This document shows, in pieces, positions 892 through 41,090 of a DNA stretch of 64,000 nt (positions within the stretch are counted from its first letter, which is position 1; each line of letters starts with the position of its first letter). The notes under the pieces are model-generated. The model saw only the letters and a list, made by a program, of their open reading frames with translations. It did not search any database and was not told the origin of the DNA. The position numbers were made by a program, and so were the translations under genes. The stretch is from positions 5,440,001 through 5,504,000 of the forward strand of contig CBDFKD010000002.1 of NCBI GenBank assembly GCA_965248695.1, in the 5' to 3' direction. The stretch is from Acidobacteriota bacterium (GTDB lineage Bacteria > Acidobacteriota > UBA890 > WLXD01).

Positions 892-2547
892 TTAGCGACG
901 TGGGGAACCATCTACGGAGAGGTAGCCCTGGCGTCGCAGCACGATTCCAGCCCGCTCGTCGGTCGGCTCGCCATCCCGCAGCGCCAGCCGTCCGTTGACC
1001 GCGACATGCACTAGCCCCTCCGAGTACTGGTGAGGTTCAGTGTAGGTGGCGCGGTCGGTGATCCGCTCGAGATCGAAAACCACGAGGTCGCTGAACGCGC
1101 CGGCCCGGATGACGCCGCGGTCGGCAATTCGAAAGACGGCCGCCGGCAGGCTGGTCATGCTACGGATCGCCGCCGGCAGCGTCACGAATCCCTCATCGAT
1201 CGCATACTTCCTGATCTTGCGCGGATACGTGCCATAGGAGCGGGGATGCGGCCTGCCCACGCCGAACGGCGGCAACCCGCCATCGGAAGAGGTCATCGTC
1301 CATGGTTGCACCATCAGGCGGCGCAGGTCATCGGTGTGCATGTTGAACGAGATCACCGAGCCCGGTAGGCCGCCGCTGATGATCTCGATCGCCACGTCGA
1401 CCGGGTGCTCGCCCTGCTGATCGGCCAGCGACTGCAGCGTACGCCCTTCCATGTCCGGGCCACCGCCGGTGAACTGGATCCGATCTGCGCCGCCGCGGCG
1501 CGCCAGGTTGTCGATCATCGCCTCTCGGATCCGCGCCCGGGTATCTCGATCGGCGAATCGCCGCTCCTGCTCTTCGCTGCCACCGGCCTGCGACCAGCGC
1601 GGCAGGAGCGCTGCGGACAACCCCGTGCTCGAGGCCTCATAGGGGTACTGGTCGGCGTACATCTCCACACCCTCGGCTCGCGCCGCCTCGATTCGCTCGA
1701 CCATGATCTCCGATTCGCCCCAGGCGTTGGGACCGAGCGCCTTGATGTGGGTCACGACACCCGGGATGGCCGCCTCGCGCGCCACCCGGATGACCTCGTC
1801 CACCGCAGCGACGACGCCGATTGTGTAGTCGGCCTCATCGCGAATATGCGCCGCGTAGACGCCGCCTGAGGCGGCGACGACCTGCGCCAACTCGATCACC
1901 TCTTCGAGCTCCGCGTAGCTGCCAGGCGTGTAGAACAAACCGCTGGAGAGGCCGAACGCTCCCGCCTCCATGGCGGCGCTGACGATCGATCTCATGCGAC
2001 CCAGCTCCACCGCCGTGGGCGCCCGATCGGCCATCCCGAGCACCTCCCCGCGCACGCTCCCGTGTCCAATCATCTGGGCGACGTTGACTCCTGAGCCGTG
2101 AGCCATCAGGGCGTCGCGCTGCGCCTCGACGTCGACATCGCCACCGCCATCCGGATTGATCACCACCGTGGTCAGACCCTGGTACAGGAGCGTCGCAGCG
2201 CCGCTGCGCTCTTCGCTAGCCAGACCGGCGGCGGCATGTGAATGGGCGTCGATGAAGCCCGGTGCCACGTAGAGACCGGTGGCGTCGATCTCGATAGCGG
2301 CGGTAGCGGCGGACAGGTCGCCGACGGCGACAATGCGCTCACCGCGAACGCCGATATCCACCCGCCTCCAGGGATTGCCGCTGCCATCGAACACGCGACC
2401 ACCACGAATCAACAGACCCAGCGAGTCTCTGCTCTGGGGCAACTCGAGCGGCGCCCCGCCGACAACCGCGGCATCGCCGACTGCGAGCAGCAGACAACCC
2501 AGTATCGAGAGACCGATCTGTCGCCGGCGTGCGGCTCGAGCGGCCAC
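892..2547 (-). CDS. N-acyl-D-amino-acid deacylase family amidohydrolase, with signal peptide
   Basis: APGFIDAHSH, GLSSGLFYTPG, HIRDE, HPRSYGTYPR and GAFSDLVVFD motifs; hydrophobic N-terminus. Confidence 0.88.
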   Translation of the reverse strand: MAARAARRRQIGLSILGCLLLAVGDAAVVGGAPLELPQSRDSLGLLIRGGRVFDGSGNPWRRVDIGVRGERIVAVGDLSAATAAIEIDATGLYVAPGFIDAHSHAAAGLASEERSGAATLLYQGLTTVVINPDGGGDVDVEAQRDALMAHGSGVNVAQMIGHGSVRGEVLGMADRAPTAVELGRMRSIVSAAMEAGAFGLSSGLFYTPGSYAELEEVIELAQVVAASGGVYAAHIRDEADYTIGVVAAVDEVIRVAREAAIPGVVTHIKALGPNAWGESEIMVERIEAARAEGVEMYADQYPYEASSTGLSAALLPRWSQAGGSEEQERRFADRDTRARIREAMIDNLARRGGADRIQFTGGGPDMEGRTLQSLADQQGEHPVDVAIEIISGGLPGSVISFNMHTDDLRRLMVQPWTMTSSDGGLPPFGVGRPHPRSYGTYPRKIRKYAIDEGFVTLPAAIRSMTSLPAAVFRIADRGVIRAGAFSDLVVFDLERITDRATYTEPHQYSEGLVHVAVNGRLALRDGEPTDERAGIVLRRQGYLSVDGSPRR

Positions 2548-6622: not shown

Positions 6623-6705
6623 TGCCGGGGCTGGGACTCGAACCCAGACGGCCTAGGGCCAGCGGATTTTAAGTCCGCCGCGTCTGCCAATTTCGCCACC
6701 CCGGC
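6623..6705 (-). tRNA. tRNA-Leu (anticodon TAA); CCA not encoded
   Basis: GCCGGGGTGGCGAAATTGGCAGACGCGGCGGACTTAAAATCCGC...GGGTTCGAGTCCCAGCCCCGGCA, with a long variable arm. Confidence 0.95.
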
Positions 6706-33328: not shown

Positions 33329-33991
33329 TCAGCCTTCTCCCGGTCCCGACCATCGAGGCCCGTCCGGGGCCCGGTACGCGTGCATGCGCTCCAGCAAACG
33401 GTCGGGATGGTCGTCGACCAACAGCTGCTCACGCCGAGGGCCGTCGAGGAACCCCTCCTGCACTGCGTAGTCGAGCATTCCCAGGAGCGCGTCGTAGTAG
33501 CCGGCCACGTTCAAGACTCCGACTGGTTTCCTGTGCATCCCCAGCTGCGCCCAGGCGCTGATCTCGAACAGCTCCTCGAACGTTCCGATGCCGCCGGGCA
33601 GCGCGATGAAACCGGAGGCCAGCTCGGACATCAGATGCTTGCGCTCATGCATCGAGTCGACGACGACGAGCTCGCTCAGCGACGTGTGTCCGACCTCGCG
33701 CACCTGCAACCCGTACGGGATGACGCCGGTAACCCGACCGCCGGCAGCCATCACCGAGTCGGCGATACGGCCCATCAGACCGACGCTGCCGCCGCCGTAG
33801 ACCAACCCGATGCCGCGATCGACGAGCGCCCGCCCGAGCGCCGCAGCAGCATCTCCGTAGTCGGCTCGAACGCCGGACCTGGATCCGCAGAAGACGCAGT
33901 AGAAGAGCCCGCCCGCGCCGTCAGGCGTTTGCTTGTATCCGCGCAGCGCGCTTCTCCCAGCGCTCGCGTGCCTTGGCACGCTCCTCCTCAC
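33329..33991 (-). CDS. LOG family nucleotide monophosphate nucleosidase (TIGR00730-like); start uncertain
   Basis: CVFCGS, LVYGGGSVGLMG, MHERK and PGGIGTFEE. Confidence 0.9.
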   Translation of the reverse strand: MRRSVPRHASAGRSALRGYKQTPDGAGGLFYCVFCGSRSGVRADYGDAAAALGRALVDRGIGLVYGGGSVGLMGRIADSVMAAGGRVTGVIPYGLQVREVGHTSLSELVVVDSMHERKHLMSELASGFIALPGGIGTFEELFEISAWAQLGMHRKPVGVLNVAGYYDALLGMLDYAVQEGFLDGPRREQLLVDDHPDRLLERMHAYRAPDGPRWSGPGEG

Positions 33992-34205
33992 GCGACTTCG
34001 GCGAGGCAGTAGTCACGAGGCTGCCCAACAAGCCCATCGAGACCGCCGTTACGTCGTCGACGGCGCGCTCGAATGCTTCCGTGTTTGCCTGCGACGGCGC
34101 CCGCATGCCGCTGATCTTCCGTACGTACTGCAGGGCCGAAGCACGAACCTCGGCTTGGGTCGCCGTGGGCTCGAAGTTGAACAGCGGACGAATATTTCGA
34201 CACAC
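33921..34205 (-). CDS. DUF2277 family protein
   Basis: MCRNIRPLFNFEP...SALQYVRKISG signature; GAGGAG RBS upstream. Confidence 0.85.
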   Translation of the reverse strand: MCRNIRPLFNFEPTATQAEVRASALQYVRKISGMRAPSQANTEAFERAVDDVTAVSMGLLGSLVTTASPKSREEERAKARERWEKRAARIQANA

Positions 34206-34366
34206 GAGCGGATCCTCCTCGATGAATCGGAGCTGGCGAGTTGGCGCCCCATTTTGTCATGCGCGTGCGCCAGATCAGCGCGCCGCCGAGGATACGCCGC
34301 GGCTCCGGATTCAGGAAACCGGATCAGGAATTCGTGAATCCGTACTCGCCGCTGACGATCGAATAC

Positions 34367-34573
34367 AGAAAACCCGGCGATATCGGGCACGCCAGCCGTC
34401 GCCCCAGGCCGCTCCCCTTTACGTCCATGATCGGGACAGGGCTGGCGTCCACGTTATCGCCGGGTCCTCCGGGCTCAGGTAACACCGTGCACGCCAGCCA
34501 CAGCCCCAGGCCGCTCCCCTTTACGTCCATGATCGGGACAGGGCTGGCGTCCACACTGCCACCTGAGCTTCTA
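34367..34573 (-). ncRNA. Candidate structured small RNA made of two tandem long hairpins with an identical 39-nt loop
   Basis: A 66-bp direct repeat (34387-34452 and 34489-34554, period 102). Each copy is enclosed by its own outer stem (GCTCAGGT/ACCTGAGC; ACCCGGCGATA/TATCGCCGGGT). G-U pairs are possible only on the - strand. There is a 3' U-tract and an upstream sigma54 motif. Confidence 0.6.
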
Positions 34574-34583
34574 TCGACAGAGG

Positions 34584-34600
34584 AGCAAATGTCGTGCCAA
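34584..34600 (-). promoter_or_regulatory. Sigma54 (-24/-12) promoter
   Basis: Minus strand TTGGCACGACATTTGCT matches TGGCACG-N4-TTGCW exactly and is intergenic. Confidence 0.75.
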
Positions 34601-34709
34601 TACGGCTGGGCGTTTTGGCCCTACCAGGCTGCGTCGGCGCCGGCGATGGCGCTCGGAGCGGCAAGCGTCGTCCCGATTTCGGGATCGCCTGTGCCAGAAC
34701 CGGACGGCG

Positions 34710-35510
34710 CTACGAAGCGGGCTGTTCCACCGGATCGCTGGTGTACGGATCGTCCTCGACAACCCATCCATCCAGCAGGTTGATGATCCGGTCGCTGTAG
34801 CCAGCGTTCATCTCGGAGTGGGTCACCTGAACGATGGTGGTTCCCTCCTCCTCGTTGAGGCGCTTGAACAGCTCCATAATCTCCTTGCCCTGCGCCGTGT
34901 GGAGGTTGCCGGTCGGCTCGTCCGCCAGCAGCACCTTCGGGTTGCCGATGATCGCTCGAGCCACGCCTACCAGCTGCTGCTGCCCGCCGGACAGCTGGCT
35001 CGGGTAGAGATCCTTCTTGCCGACGATATTGAAGCGATCGAGGGTGTCCGCGACCATGCTCTTGCGCTGCGCCCGCTTGATGTTGCGATACGACAGCGGC
35101 ACGTCGAGATTCTCGTACACGGTCATGCTGTCGATCAGGTGGTAGCTCTGGAAGACGAACCCGATGTACTCACGGTTCAGCCGGTTGCGCTCTTTCGAGC
35201 TCAGATCGTGCACCGGGTAGTCCAGGAAGTAGTACTCGCCTTCCCAGGACCCATCGAGCATGCCGATGATGCTCAACAGAGTCGATTTGCCGGCCCCCGA
35301 GGGCCCCATGATGGTGACGAACTCACCCTGCTTGATGTCGGCGTTGATGCGGCGCAGCACGTACGTGCGCCCGAAGCCCGACTTGTACCACTTTTCGATT
35401 CCGCGCAGTCGGACGATCGGCGAATTGGGATCCCGTTCGATTAGCGGTTCCGTGCCACGGGCTTCTTTGCCCCCTAGAAGGTCACGCGCTTTCCACATAT
35501 CCCTCAACAT
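34710..35510 (-). CDS. ABC transporter ATP-binding protein (LolD/MacB-type), no adjacent permease
   Basis: GPSGAGKST, LSGGQQQ, LADEPTGNL and VTH. Confidence 0.92.
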   Translation of the reverse strand: MLRDMWKARDLLGGKEARGTEPLIERDPNSPIVRLRGIEKWYKSGFGRTYVLRRINADIKQGEFVTIMGPSGAGKSTLLSIIGMLDGSWEGEYYFLDYPVHDLSSKERNRLNREYIGFVFQSYHLIDSMTVYENLDVPLSYRNIKRAQRKSMVADTLDRFNIVGKKDLYPSQLSGGQQQLVGVARAIIGNPKVLLADEPTGNLHTAQGKEIMELFKRLNEEEGTTIVQVTHSEMNAGYSDRIINLLDGWVVEDDPYTSDPVEQPAS

Positions 35511-40853: not shown

Positions 40854-40925
40854 AGGCGGCGGGCGGGATCGAACCGCCGAATCGCGGTTTTGCAGACCGC
40901 TGCCTTACCACTTGGCTACGCCGCC
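40854..40925 (-). tRNA. tRNA-Cys (GCA)
   Basis: GGCGGCGTAGCCAAGTGGTAAGGCAGCGGTCTGCAAAACCGC...GGTTCGATCCCGCCCGCCGCCT, followed by CCT rather than CCA. Confidence 0.95.
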
Positions 40926-41014: not shown

Positions 41015-41090
41015 TGGAGCGGGAAACGGGATTCGAACCCGCGACCTCAACGTTGGCAACGTTGCGCTCTACCAGCTGAGCTATTCCCGC
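41015..41090 (-). tRNA. tRNA-Gly (GCC)
   Basis: GCGGGAATAGCTCAGCTGGTAGAGCGCAACGTTGCCAACGTTG...GGTTCGAATCCCGTTTCCCGCTCCA. Confidence 0.97.

Follow-up and report, generated by a model that had tools for sequence, protein, structure and literature searches.

We analysed a stretch of 64,000 nucleotides from an Acidobacteriota bacterium (contig CBDFKD010000002.1, positions 5,440,001 to 5,504,000 of the forward strand), called here the window. Its minus strand carries, between 34,361 and 35,510, a two-hairpin RNA element beside an ATP-binding cassette (ABC) ATPase gene. Read along this strand, the order is the stop of the ATPase gene (34710), an enhancer-like dyad, a sigma-54 (-24/-12) promoter, a 16-nt spacer, hairpin 1, a linker, hairpin 2 and a U-rich tail. 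The dyad (CGTCCGGTTCTGGCACA, 7 nt, CCGAAATCGGGAC; 34670-34706) spans 37 nt and lies about 107 nt upstream of the -24 element. The promoter, TGGCACGACATTTGCT, occupies 34584-34599 and predicts a start near 34573, which is 5 nt ahead of hairpin 1. RNA unit 1 (hairpin 1, 34473-34568) has a covarying outer stem, a conserved inner stem and an invariant apex, and scores 98.6 bits with our covariance model. RNA unit 2 (hairpin 2, 34371-34466) scores 105.5 bits. The 6-nt linker between them (34467-34472) has no promoter of its own. Directly after hairpin 2, the tail UUUUCUGUAUUC (34361-34372) is the probable point of intrinsic termination. The structure, strand and conservation of this RNA are observed directly: it is real, new and specific to one class of Acidobacteriota. 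Its sequence features suggest that it is most likely a modular small RNA (sRNA) acting in trans.

A first-pass annotation, made from the letters of the window, had described twin hairpins here, and every string it quoted is present on the minus strand at its place. The hairpins correspond to two long inverted repeats, 34473-34499/34542-34568 (I2, hairpin 1) and 34372-34404/34433-34465 (I1, hairpin 2). Their outer stems are unlike in sequence, as that annotation said, and both of them pair. It also reported an identical 39-nt loop. The identity holds, but the length was underestimated, because the inner stem is common too and the identical stretch is longer. The two copies appear as a direct repeat of 69 nt (34384-34452 and 34486-34554), 94% identical and 102 nt apart.

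The minus-strand RNA (34367-34575) has a minimum free energy (MFE) of -129.2 kcal/mol. Its 200 shuffles give -91.1 ± 4.7 kcal/mol (z = -8.2), and none of them is as good. The plus strand folds at -101.7 kcal/mol. The MFE structure contains 78 pairs: 51 G-C, 14 A-U and 13 G-U. These 13 would be mismatches on the opposite strand. The three strand-specific G-U pairs noticed earlier are found in the outer stem of hairpin 1. Folded singly, unit 1 reaches -63.0 and unit 2 reaches -59.3 kcal/mol. A single fold is dominant (frequency 0.21), with a centroid equal to the MFE structure. It shows no alternative anti-terminator or anti-sequestor pairing; the sole cross-pairing joins the duplicated inner stems (I4). 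The apex has the consensus GGAC-NN-AAA-GGGGAGCGGCC-UGGGG, and its AAA..GGGGAG portion is always exposed in the terminal loop. This conserved apex is asymmetric and non-palindromic. Single units of the sister family carry the variant loop GGUGGAC(U/A)AAACUGGGGAGCGGCC.

We built the covariance model from 28 units. RNAalifold gives 33 consensus pairs for them, and 16 of these show compensatory changes. With 63 distinct units, double changes occur in 21 of the 33 pairs, which agrees with the selection on RNA structure that had been proposed for this strand. They affect 17 of the 22 pairs of the long outer and inner stem, and 4 of the 6 pairs of the helix GUCCCG/UGGGGC. The small apical helix shows none and is broken in 13 sequences. 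Over the 63 units, 93.0% of the cells pair, compared with 84.9 ± 0.4% after shuffling (0 of 500 reach the observed value), and sliding the partners lowers the figure to 37.8-49.3%. Sense matches range from 57 to 105 bits, most of them at least 66, and antisense matches at the same places score at most 45. A block of about 45 nt around the apex is constant throughout the class while the stems covary freely. So, the apex seems to be the functional end of the molecule.

We searched for relatives at several depths. BLAST finds matches in 22 of 41 genomes; they fall in both families of the order, with one chance-like match of 32 nt elsewhere. In the genome collection used, this order is the entire class. 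The covariance model matches 21 of the 26 genomes of the order, including 12 of 12 with a completeness of at least 90%. It matches none of the 138 genomes of other families in a 151-genome sample of the phylum (stricter Infernal filters). An exact 22-base core pattern, searched in one genome per species over all prokaryotes, matched 30 stretches: 27 from Acidobacteria/Acidobacteriota metagenome-assembled genomes (MAGs) and 3 from MAGs labelled 'uncultured bacterium'. A looser pattern gave 54 metagenome stretches, 35 of them with model matches. The plasmid and phage collections hold no match to the RNA.

Likewise, Rfam 15 holds no family for it, as had been supposed from the sequence. At the gathering threshold, the whole window returned nothing but three tRNAs, at 6623-6705, 40854-40925 and 41018-41090 (-). 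At E <= 10, the 601 nt around the RNA gave four weak rows, the best with 17.3 bits against a cut-off of 77. Two paralogue/orthologue loci scanned at E <= 1 gave three miRNA-precursor rows, far under the cut-off. Signal recognition particle (SRP) RNA, 6S RNA and RNase P RNA were rejected as identities because Rfam gave no match.

The genome of the window (5.89 Mb) has three sense units at two places according to the covariance model. BLAST with 209 nt finds one further place, C2:647653-647708. This low number bears out the earlier view that the element is not a repetitive extragenic palindrome (REP) or a miniature inverted-repeat transposable element (MITE). Relatives have between one and seven model matches per genome, with both strands counted. 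The number of units per locus varies from one to two among genera, and the apices are identical. The outer stems of both units in the window's genus match those of the corresponding units in genus g3, so the duplication is older than these genera. The linkers of tandem units vary in sequence and length among relatives. Two genomes, G003 (locus L007) and G006 (L008), show a single unit with a 5' half of the unit-1 type and a 3' half of the unit-2 type. The hybrid sequence points to a tandem that collapsed, either by recombination between the identical apices or during assembly.

The RNA units lie behind two classes of promoter. The motif TGGCAYG-N4-TTGC occurs a single time in the window (34585-34599, minus strand), where 0.03 occurrences are expected. 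A stricter form, ending in TTGC[TA], has five sites in the whole genome. The window promoter fits the canonical spacing between the -24 GG and the -12 GC (TGGCAC-N5-TTGC). Among the 63 distinct units, 22 lie behind the sigma-54 motif, and 6 others stand second in tandems that it precedes. Each of the 22 first units has the motif in front of it, with the -12 GC located 12-20 nt before the model start. The promoter proposed by the first-pass annotation, with its start near 34573, is thus conserved, and we regard this predicted sigma-54 promoter as well supported. In the 12 nt after the match, sigma-54 single units contain on average 4.1 T, second units of tandems 5.2, and units of the other class 2.2.

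The dyad accompanies this promoter. In the window's genus, 4 of 5 loci have it as CGTCCGGTTCTGGCACA-N7-CC(C/G)..AA.CGGGAC, 103-110 nt upstream of the promoter. The homologous form of the sister family, TGTCCGGTTTCGCGACA-N7-CCCACAAGCGAACA, lies 99-209 nt before TGGCA in 12 of 12 loci, with at most two mismatches in 7 of them. The dyad is a putative protein-binding site. Loose searches elsewhere in the genome gave chance-like matches only. Dyad, promoter and RNA remain constant though the flanking genes differ, which suggests that they travel together as a cassette. The genome encodes rpoN (208.6 bits) and 11 enhancer-binding proteins with strong Sigma54_activat matches, none of them in the window. 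The presence of rpoN and that of the RNA are not correlated, as G016 and G017 have rpoN and no RNA. In G005 (L173, G005:C2 ~1685-1810, minus strand), the dyad and the sigma-54 promoter follow the ABC gene and there is no hairpin. This promoter faces the 3' end of a convergent gene for a 512-aa outer-membrane-type protein and has no coding target. The 134 nt between the promoter and that gene are unstructured (z = +1.5) and give no covariance model match.

The second class lies behind a promoter that resembles those of extracytoplasmic function (ECF) sigma factors. Its motif, (G)AAACTTT ... GCGTCTAA, precedes 29 of the 63 distinct units by regular expression, and 4 more units have near-variants by inspection. 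AAC-N17-CGTC is present in 29 of 34 units, a 16-nt spacing in 2, and no match in 3. We take AAC (-35) and CGT (-10), about 16-17 nt apart, to be the consensus of ECF-type promoters. The genome has 19 Sigma70_r2 matches. The strict motif is unique in it, and a near match at C2:3767359 precedes an ORF of 99 aa that is not a sigma factor. In both promoter classes, the hairpin starts a few nt from the predicted start.

The third copy of the RNA in the genome belongs to the ECF-like class. It is a single module at C2:647629-647724 on the plus strand (locus L002, 1477-1572), behind GAAACTTT-N13-GCGTCTAA. Two direct TTGACA repeats lie upstream of it. About 55 nt after the copy there is a sigma-54 promoter, CTGGCATGGGGATTGC, followed by a gene for a 113-aa protein. 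The same arrangement is found in the window's family, where a sigma-54 promoter (e.g. CTGGCATGGGGATTGC) stands 35-60 nt after the ECF-class hairpin and ahead of the 113-aa gene. In the sister family (L013, L015, L016, L025 and others), a direct repeat GCTTAC-N11-GCTTAC occurs 40-75 nt upstream of the ECF-like motif; it may be the binding site of a regulator. Two units of G007 (L009, L047) share another motif, TTTTTCAGCAGCCTGCT / GTTTTTCAGCAGCCTGCTA, in place of the sigma-54 or the ECF-like motif. The form GTTTTTCAGCAGCCTGCTA has no GG of a -24 element, and rpoN is present in G007.

Regarding the neighbouring genes, the upstream one in the window encodes the orphan MacB/LolD-like ABC ATPase (34710-35510, minus strand; Pfam ABC_tran). 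Its best NCBIfam rows are DarD/MacB/LolD-like, every one under the cut-off. Downstream, DUF2277 (33921-34205, minus strand) and then LOG (33329-33991) begin about 155 nt past the U-rich tail. DUF2277 is outside the conserved unit. A further dyad, GAGTACGGATTCACGAATTCC (34327-34347, minus strand), lies between the RNA and DUF2277 and is kept across the loci of the genus. It may be an operator or a promoter element for DUF2277-LOG. Elsewhere in the genome, an identical 35-nt string, GCCCGGTTCATGCACGTGCGGAGATGAAGCGGGAC, occurs at 12 places at least, on both strands (e.g. C2:301154, 445425, 2303747), and is probably part of a multi-copy insertion sequence.

We compared the gene context of 28 loci of the sigma-54 class, some of them from the same or near-identical organisms, and 43 of the ECF class. 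In the window's family, the order is M49 peptidase, ABC ATPase, RNA, DUF2277, LOG and FG-GAP (7 loci with DUF2277), or the RNA is followed directly by FG-GAP (4 loci). In the sister family, rpiA points away from the RNA, which is followed by the ABC ATPase and OsmC (16 loci). So, the next gene is DUF2277 in 7 of 28 loci, FG-GAP in 4 and the ABC ATPase in 16; one locus is unjudgeable. The orthologous ATPase adjoins the RNA, on either side, in 27 of the 28 loci. In the remaining one (G007), it is located about 1.5 kb upstream. For the ECF class, 37 of 43 loci show an alpha/beta hydrolase gene pointing away from the RNA, with the 113-aa gene (and in some cases AAA_28) after it. The other six comprise two with too little flank and four in other contexts. 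Two of these four are orphan copies: L127, with an EamA gene on one side and a convergent aminotransferase gene on the other, and L148, which has a convergent Ldh_2 gene downstream.

The ATPase next to the RNA is single-copy, and its closest paralogues are at most 44% identical. The duplicated permease genes of the ADOP family number dozens per genome, with 57 matches at E <= 1e-20 in the genome of the window, fragments included (e.g. C2:4170887-4173325). The name ADOP refers to 'orphan' permeases without an adjacent ATPase. In the 26 genomes of the class, the RNA is present in 21, the ATPase orthologue in 20 and ADOP genes in 22. All three are jointly absent from four small g9 genomes (G015, G016, G017 and G025), and the best ATPase match in G015-G017 is 39-40% identical. 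G020, also labelled g9, has the RNA, the ATPase orthologue and ADOP genes. This distribution suggests that the RNA belongs to the control of the ADOP/ATPase export system. One loss event in genomes that are reduced and incomplete may account for the joint absence, which makes it weak evidence.

The 113-aa gene (L002, 1689-2027, plus strand) has paralogues at C2:4161625, C2:632478 and C2:696223. Its family was found in all 13 sampled genomes of the class, with two to six copies each, and in none of the 138 other genomes of the sample. The protein has no Pfam or NCBIfam family. Its AlphaFold model is all-helical (mean pLDDT 73.1), and Foldseek found no solved structure matching it at E <= 0.001. 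Its look-alikes in the protein atlas are unnamed clusters, partly from phages.

We estimate at about 0.6 the probability that the RNA is a stand-alone sRNA, controlled by alternative sigma factors and acting through its invariant purine-rich apex, in a manner like that of NrsZ from Pseudomonas but unrelated to it. The sigma-54 promoter, with the enhancer-like dyad upstream, would drive a non-coding RNA gene of about 205 nt. The transcript would start about 5 nt before hairpin 1 and end at the U-rich tail that follows hairpin 2. Each module, 96 nt long, is a very stable, covarying stem and would serve as a scaffold that displays the apex. The tandem copy would double the apex dose. Because the third copy stands behind an ECF-like promoter, the same effector apex would answer to two distinct signals of stress or nutrient state. 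The apex would work in trans, and we lean to Hfq-independent, loop-mediated pairing with C/U-rich RNA targets, as in NrsZ. We judge it almost as likely that the apex captures a protein or a ligand. Transcription, both ends, trans action and target are all predictions from sequence.

Neither Hfq nor CsrA was found in the genome, which is 96.4% complete. This argues against a classical Hfq-seed mode and a CsrA-sponge mode, and leaves loop-loop pairing as in NrsZ, or capture of a partner. A CsrA sponge was specifically rejected, as CsrA was not found.

Several observations weigh against a stand-alone sRNA that pairs with targets. Exact complements of at least 11 nt to the 46-nt apex, searched in the whole genome, gave no convincing target. 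The best non-self complement is one 16-mer (C2:1726215), which lies opposite the variable portion of the loop; about 0.08 such matches are expected by chance. RNAduplex against 34 ADOP 5' regions gave -24.2 kcal/mol for the loop, compared with -23.8 for 300 random regions and -23.7 for shuffled queries, and thus no enrichment. Besides, the invariant block of about 45 nt exceeds the usual length of a seed, and it fits protein or ligand binding at least as well. In the two main syntenic contexts, RNA and next gene point the same way, 66-262 nt apart for the ABC gene, about 166 nt for DUF2277 and 31-307 nt for the 113-aa gene. Read-through or a leader function is therefore possible. The ECF-class units are mostly without a U-tract. 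On the side of the data, the 63-unit alignment was fitted to the model's structure. Part of the core invariance seen in pattern-derived sequences is ascertainment, since the search patterns partly fixed the core. Finally, all carriers are uncultured MAGs, and the look-up of sequencing runs for this sequence listed four runs from one study, none given as RNA.

A variant of trans action, already put forward in the first-pass annotation, is that the RNA serves as a decoy or sponge. With its two identical apices, the tandem would titrate a dimeric or abundant protein or ligand, and the single ECF-class copy before the 113-aa gene would be the partner's natural site in cis. The apices are indeed duplicated, and paired positions form part of the uninterrupted invariant block of about 45 nt. 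The 113-aa family has the same class-restricted distribution and lies downstream of the ECF-class RNA in most loci. However, CsrA and Hfq were not found in the genome, and the 113-aa protein has neither a Pfam family nor a solved-structure match. By inspection, the orthologues of one family appear basic and those of the other family acidic. G015 retains the protein and has no RNA, and the paralogues in the genome of the window have no RNA nearby. We see the decoy as possible, although unlikely.

The main rival reading is that the RNA acts in cis, as a 5' leader or attenuator, which we consider rather improbable. In this case, the hairpin and U-tract would be a terminator or stabiliser within the 5' UTR of the next gene, and a protein or ligand bound to the apex would set read-through. 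The controlled genes would be ABC ATPase-OsmC in the sister family, DUF2277-LOG or FG-GAP in the family of the window and, for the ECF class, the 113-aa gene. The RNA is co-oriented with and near the next gene at every main-context locus that has enough flank. In the sister family, the sigma-54 promoter, the RNA, the U-tract and the ABC start follow one another within 66-262 nt. The ECF-class units of that family have no U-tract, and one stands only 31 nt ahead of the 113-aa gene, so these units must be co-transcribed with it. An invariant core within covarying stems also resembles an aptamer. Thus a leader or attenuator role is possible, above all for the ECF-class copy.

Nevertheless, a stand-alone sRNA fits better than a leader, because the RNA has its own promoter and enhancer-like cassette and, in the sigma-54 class, a U-tract behind its units. 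Depending on the lineage, an unchanged RNA and promoter stand ahead of different genes, and the orphan copies L127 and L148 have convergent genes downstream; both facts favour the sRNA too. The stems, at about -60 kcal/mol per unit, are too stable to switch, and alternative anti-terminator pairing is not seen in the fold. In the window's own family, the ECF-class RNA is separated from the 113-aa gene by another sigma-54 promoter, and in its genus the conserved dyad between the RNA and DUF2277 suggests separate control. The earlier idea of a tandem-aptamer leader for DUF2277-LOG does not survive the comparison, as DUF2277 is the next gene in a quarter of the sigma-54-class loci (7 of 28) and FG-GAP or the ABC ATPase takes its place elsewhere.

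A combined possibility, which we hold as doubtful, would make the hairpin an RNA domain of a new kind that binds a protein or a ligand. Carried both by a sigma-54-induced sRNA and by the leader of an ECF-controlled operon, it would be the regulatory arm of export by the ADOP permeases and the orphan MacB-like ATPase.

It is very improbable that the element works as DNA, that is, as a palindromic protein site, a REP/MITE-like repeat or a terminator of the ABC gene that was neutrally duplicated. In the genome of the window, a long inverted repeat does follow the end of a gene, and a sigma-54 promoter follows the ECF-class copy at about 100 nt, which puts this copy at the usual position of an enhancer. 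Nevertheless, the genome has just three units, and plasmids and phages have none. The fold holds 13 G-U pairs, and the sense strand is ahead by 55-60 bits. The apex is asymmetric, the promoter lies at a fixed distance before the hairpin, and in the sister family the RNA is upstream of the ABC gene and not after it.

A small protein encoded across the hairpins (ORF 34324-34554, 76 aa, with MDVKGSGLG twice) is scarcely credible, for although the frame is open in this genome and the stretch ATG-GAC-GTA-AAG is kept in many units, no Shine-Dalgarno sequence precedes the ORF, the sister-family sigma-54 units read GUG-GAC-UAA with a length off by one nucleotide, several ECF-class units have UAG after GGG, conservation is at the nucleotide level including third positions, and the stem changes are compensatory and not synonymous.

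Two known sRNAs resemble the predicted sRNA. NrsZ has an RpoN promoter and repeated stem-loops with the same loop, in one to six modules depending on the species (PMC4253122). One module is enough for its function, and its processing and its target rhlA were demonstrated (PMC4253122). The Acidobacteriota RNA shares the RpoN-type promoter, the repeated stem-loops with identical loops and the variable number of modules (one to two here). Unlike NrsZ, its units do not contain the loop motif ACAGGCAG. NrsZ modules have about 40-60 nt and spacer hairpins; here they have 96 nt, with an apex of 26 nt and a linker of 6 nt. The nrsZ gene adjoins ntrC, and this window has no activator gene. A paralogue behind an ECF-like promoter, present for the Acidobacteriota RNA, is undescribed in the available part of the NrsZ report (PMC4253122).

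Pxr of myxobacteria is a sigma-54-dependent sRNA of about 100 nt with stable stem-loops, found in one lineage and with tandem paralogues in some genera (PMC5568312). The dependence on sigma-54, predicted here, the restriction to a lineage and the tandem paralogues are common to both. In Cystobacter, as far as that source describes, each pxr paralogue has its own sigma-54 promoter, whereas here unit 2 follows after 6 nt without one. The pxr gene lies between the activator gene nla19 and a NADH dehydrogenase gene; here the neighbours are the ABC ATPase and DUF2277. The fold of Pxr consists of three stem-loops, and both fold and phylum differ here. Since motifs, sizes and neighbours are different, the RNA is a member of neither NrsZ nor Pxr.

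Our literature search, supplements excluded, found no description of a sigma-54 or ECF sRNA in Acidobacteria, and we know of no characterised sRNA in Acidobacteriota. Other sRNAs read by alternative sigma factors include MicA, RybB and MicL, which depend on sigma-E, and Qrr, GlmY and CrcZ, which depend on sigma-54. In all these genes, the alternative sigma factor reads the sole promoter. Qrr paralogues share an invariant effector region, CrcZ is a multi-site decoy, and all of them depend on the partners Hfq, Crc or RapZ. To our knowledge, none of these sRNAs has a sigma-54 promoter for one copy and an ECF-type promoter for another.

Acidobacteriota are among the most abundant bacteria of soil. 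The RNA gives them a class-wide and easily recognised element with strong covariation, ready for Rfam. Compared with the first-pass annotation, the second promoter class, the enhancer-like dyad and the class-wide distribution are new. The two alternative-sigma promoters and the enhancer-like motif offer a way into the sigma-54 and ECF regulons of organisms that are not yet cultivable. One effector module behind two sigma factors would be a natural example of signal integration by sRNA paralogues, and tandem duplication and collapse would show the number of modules shifting in real time. Finally, the RNA is tightly linked to the orphan ATPase of a permease family that is hugely expanded, and this would give a testable entry to the role of the family.

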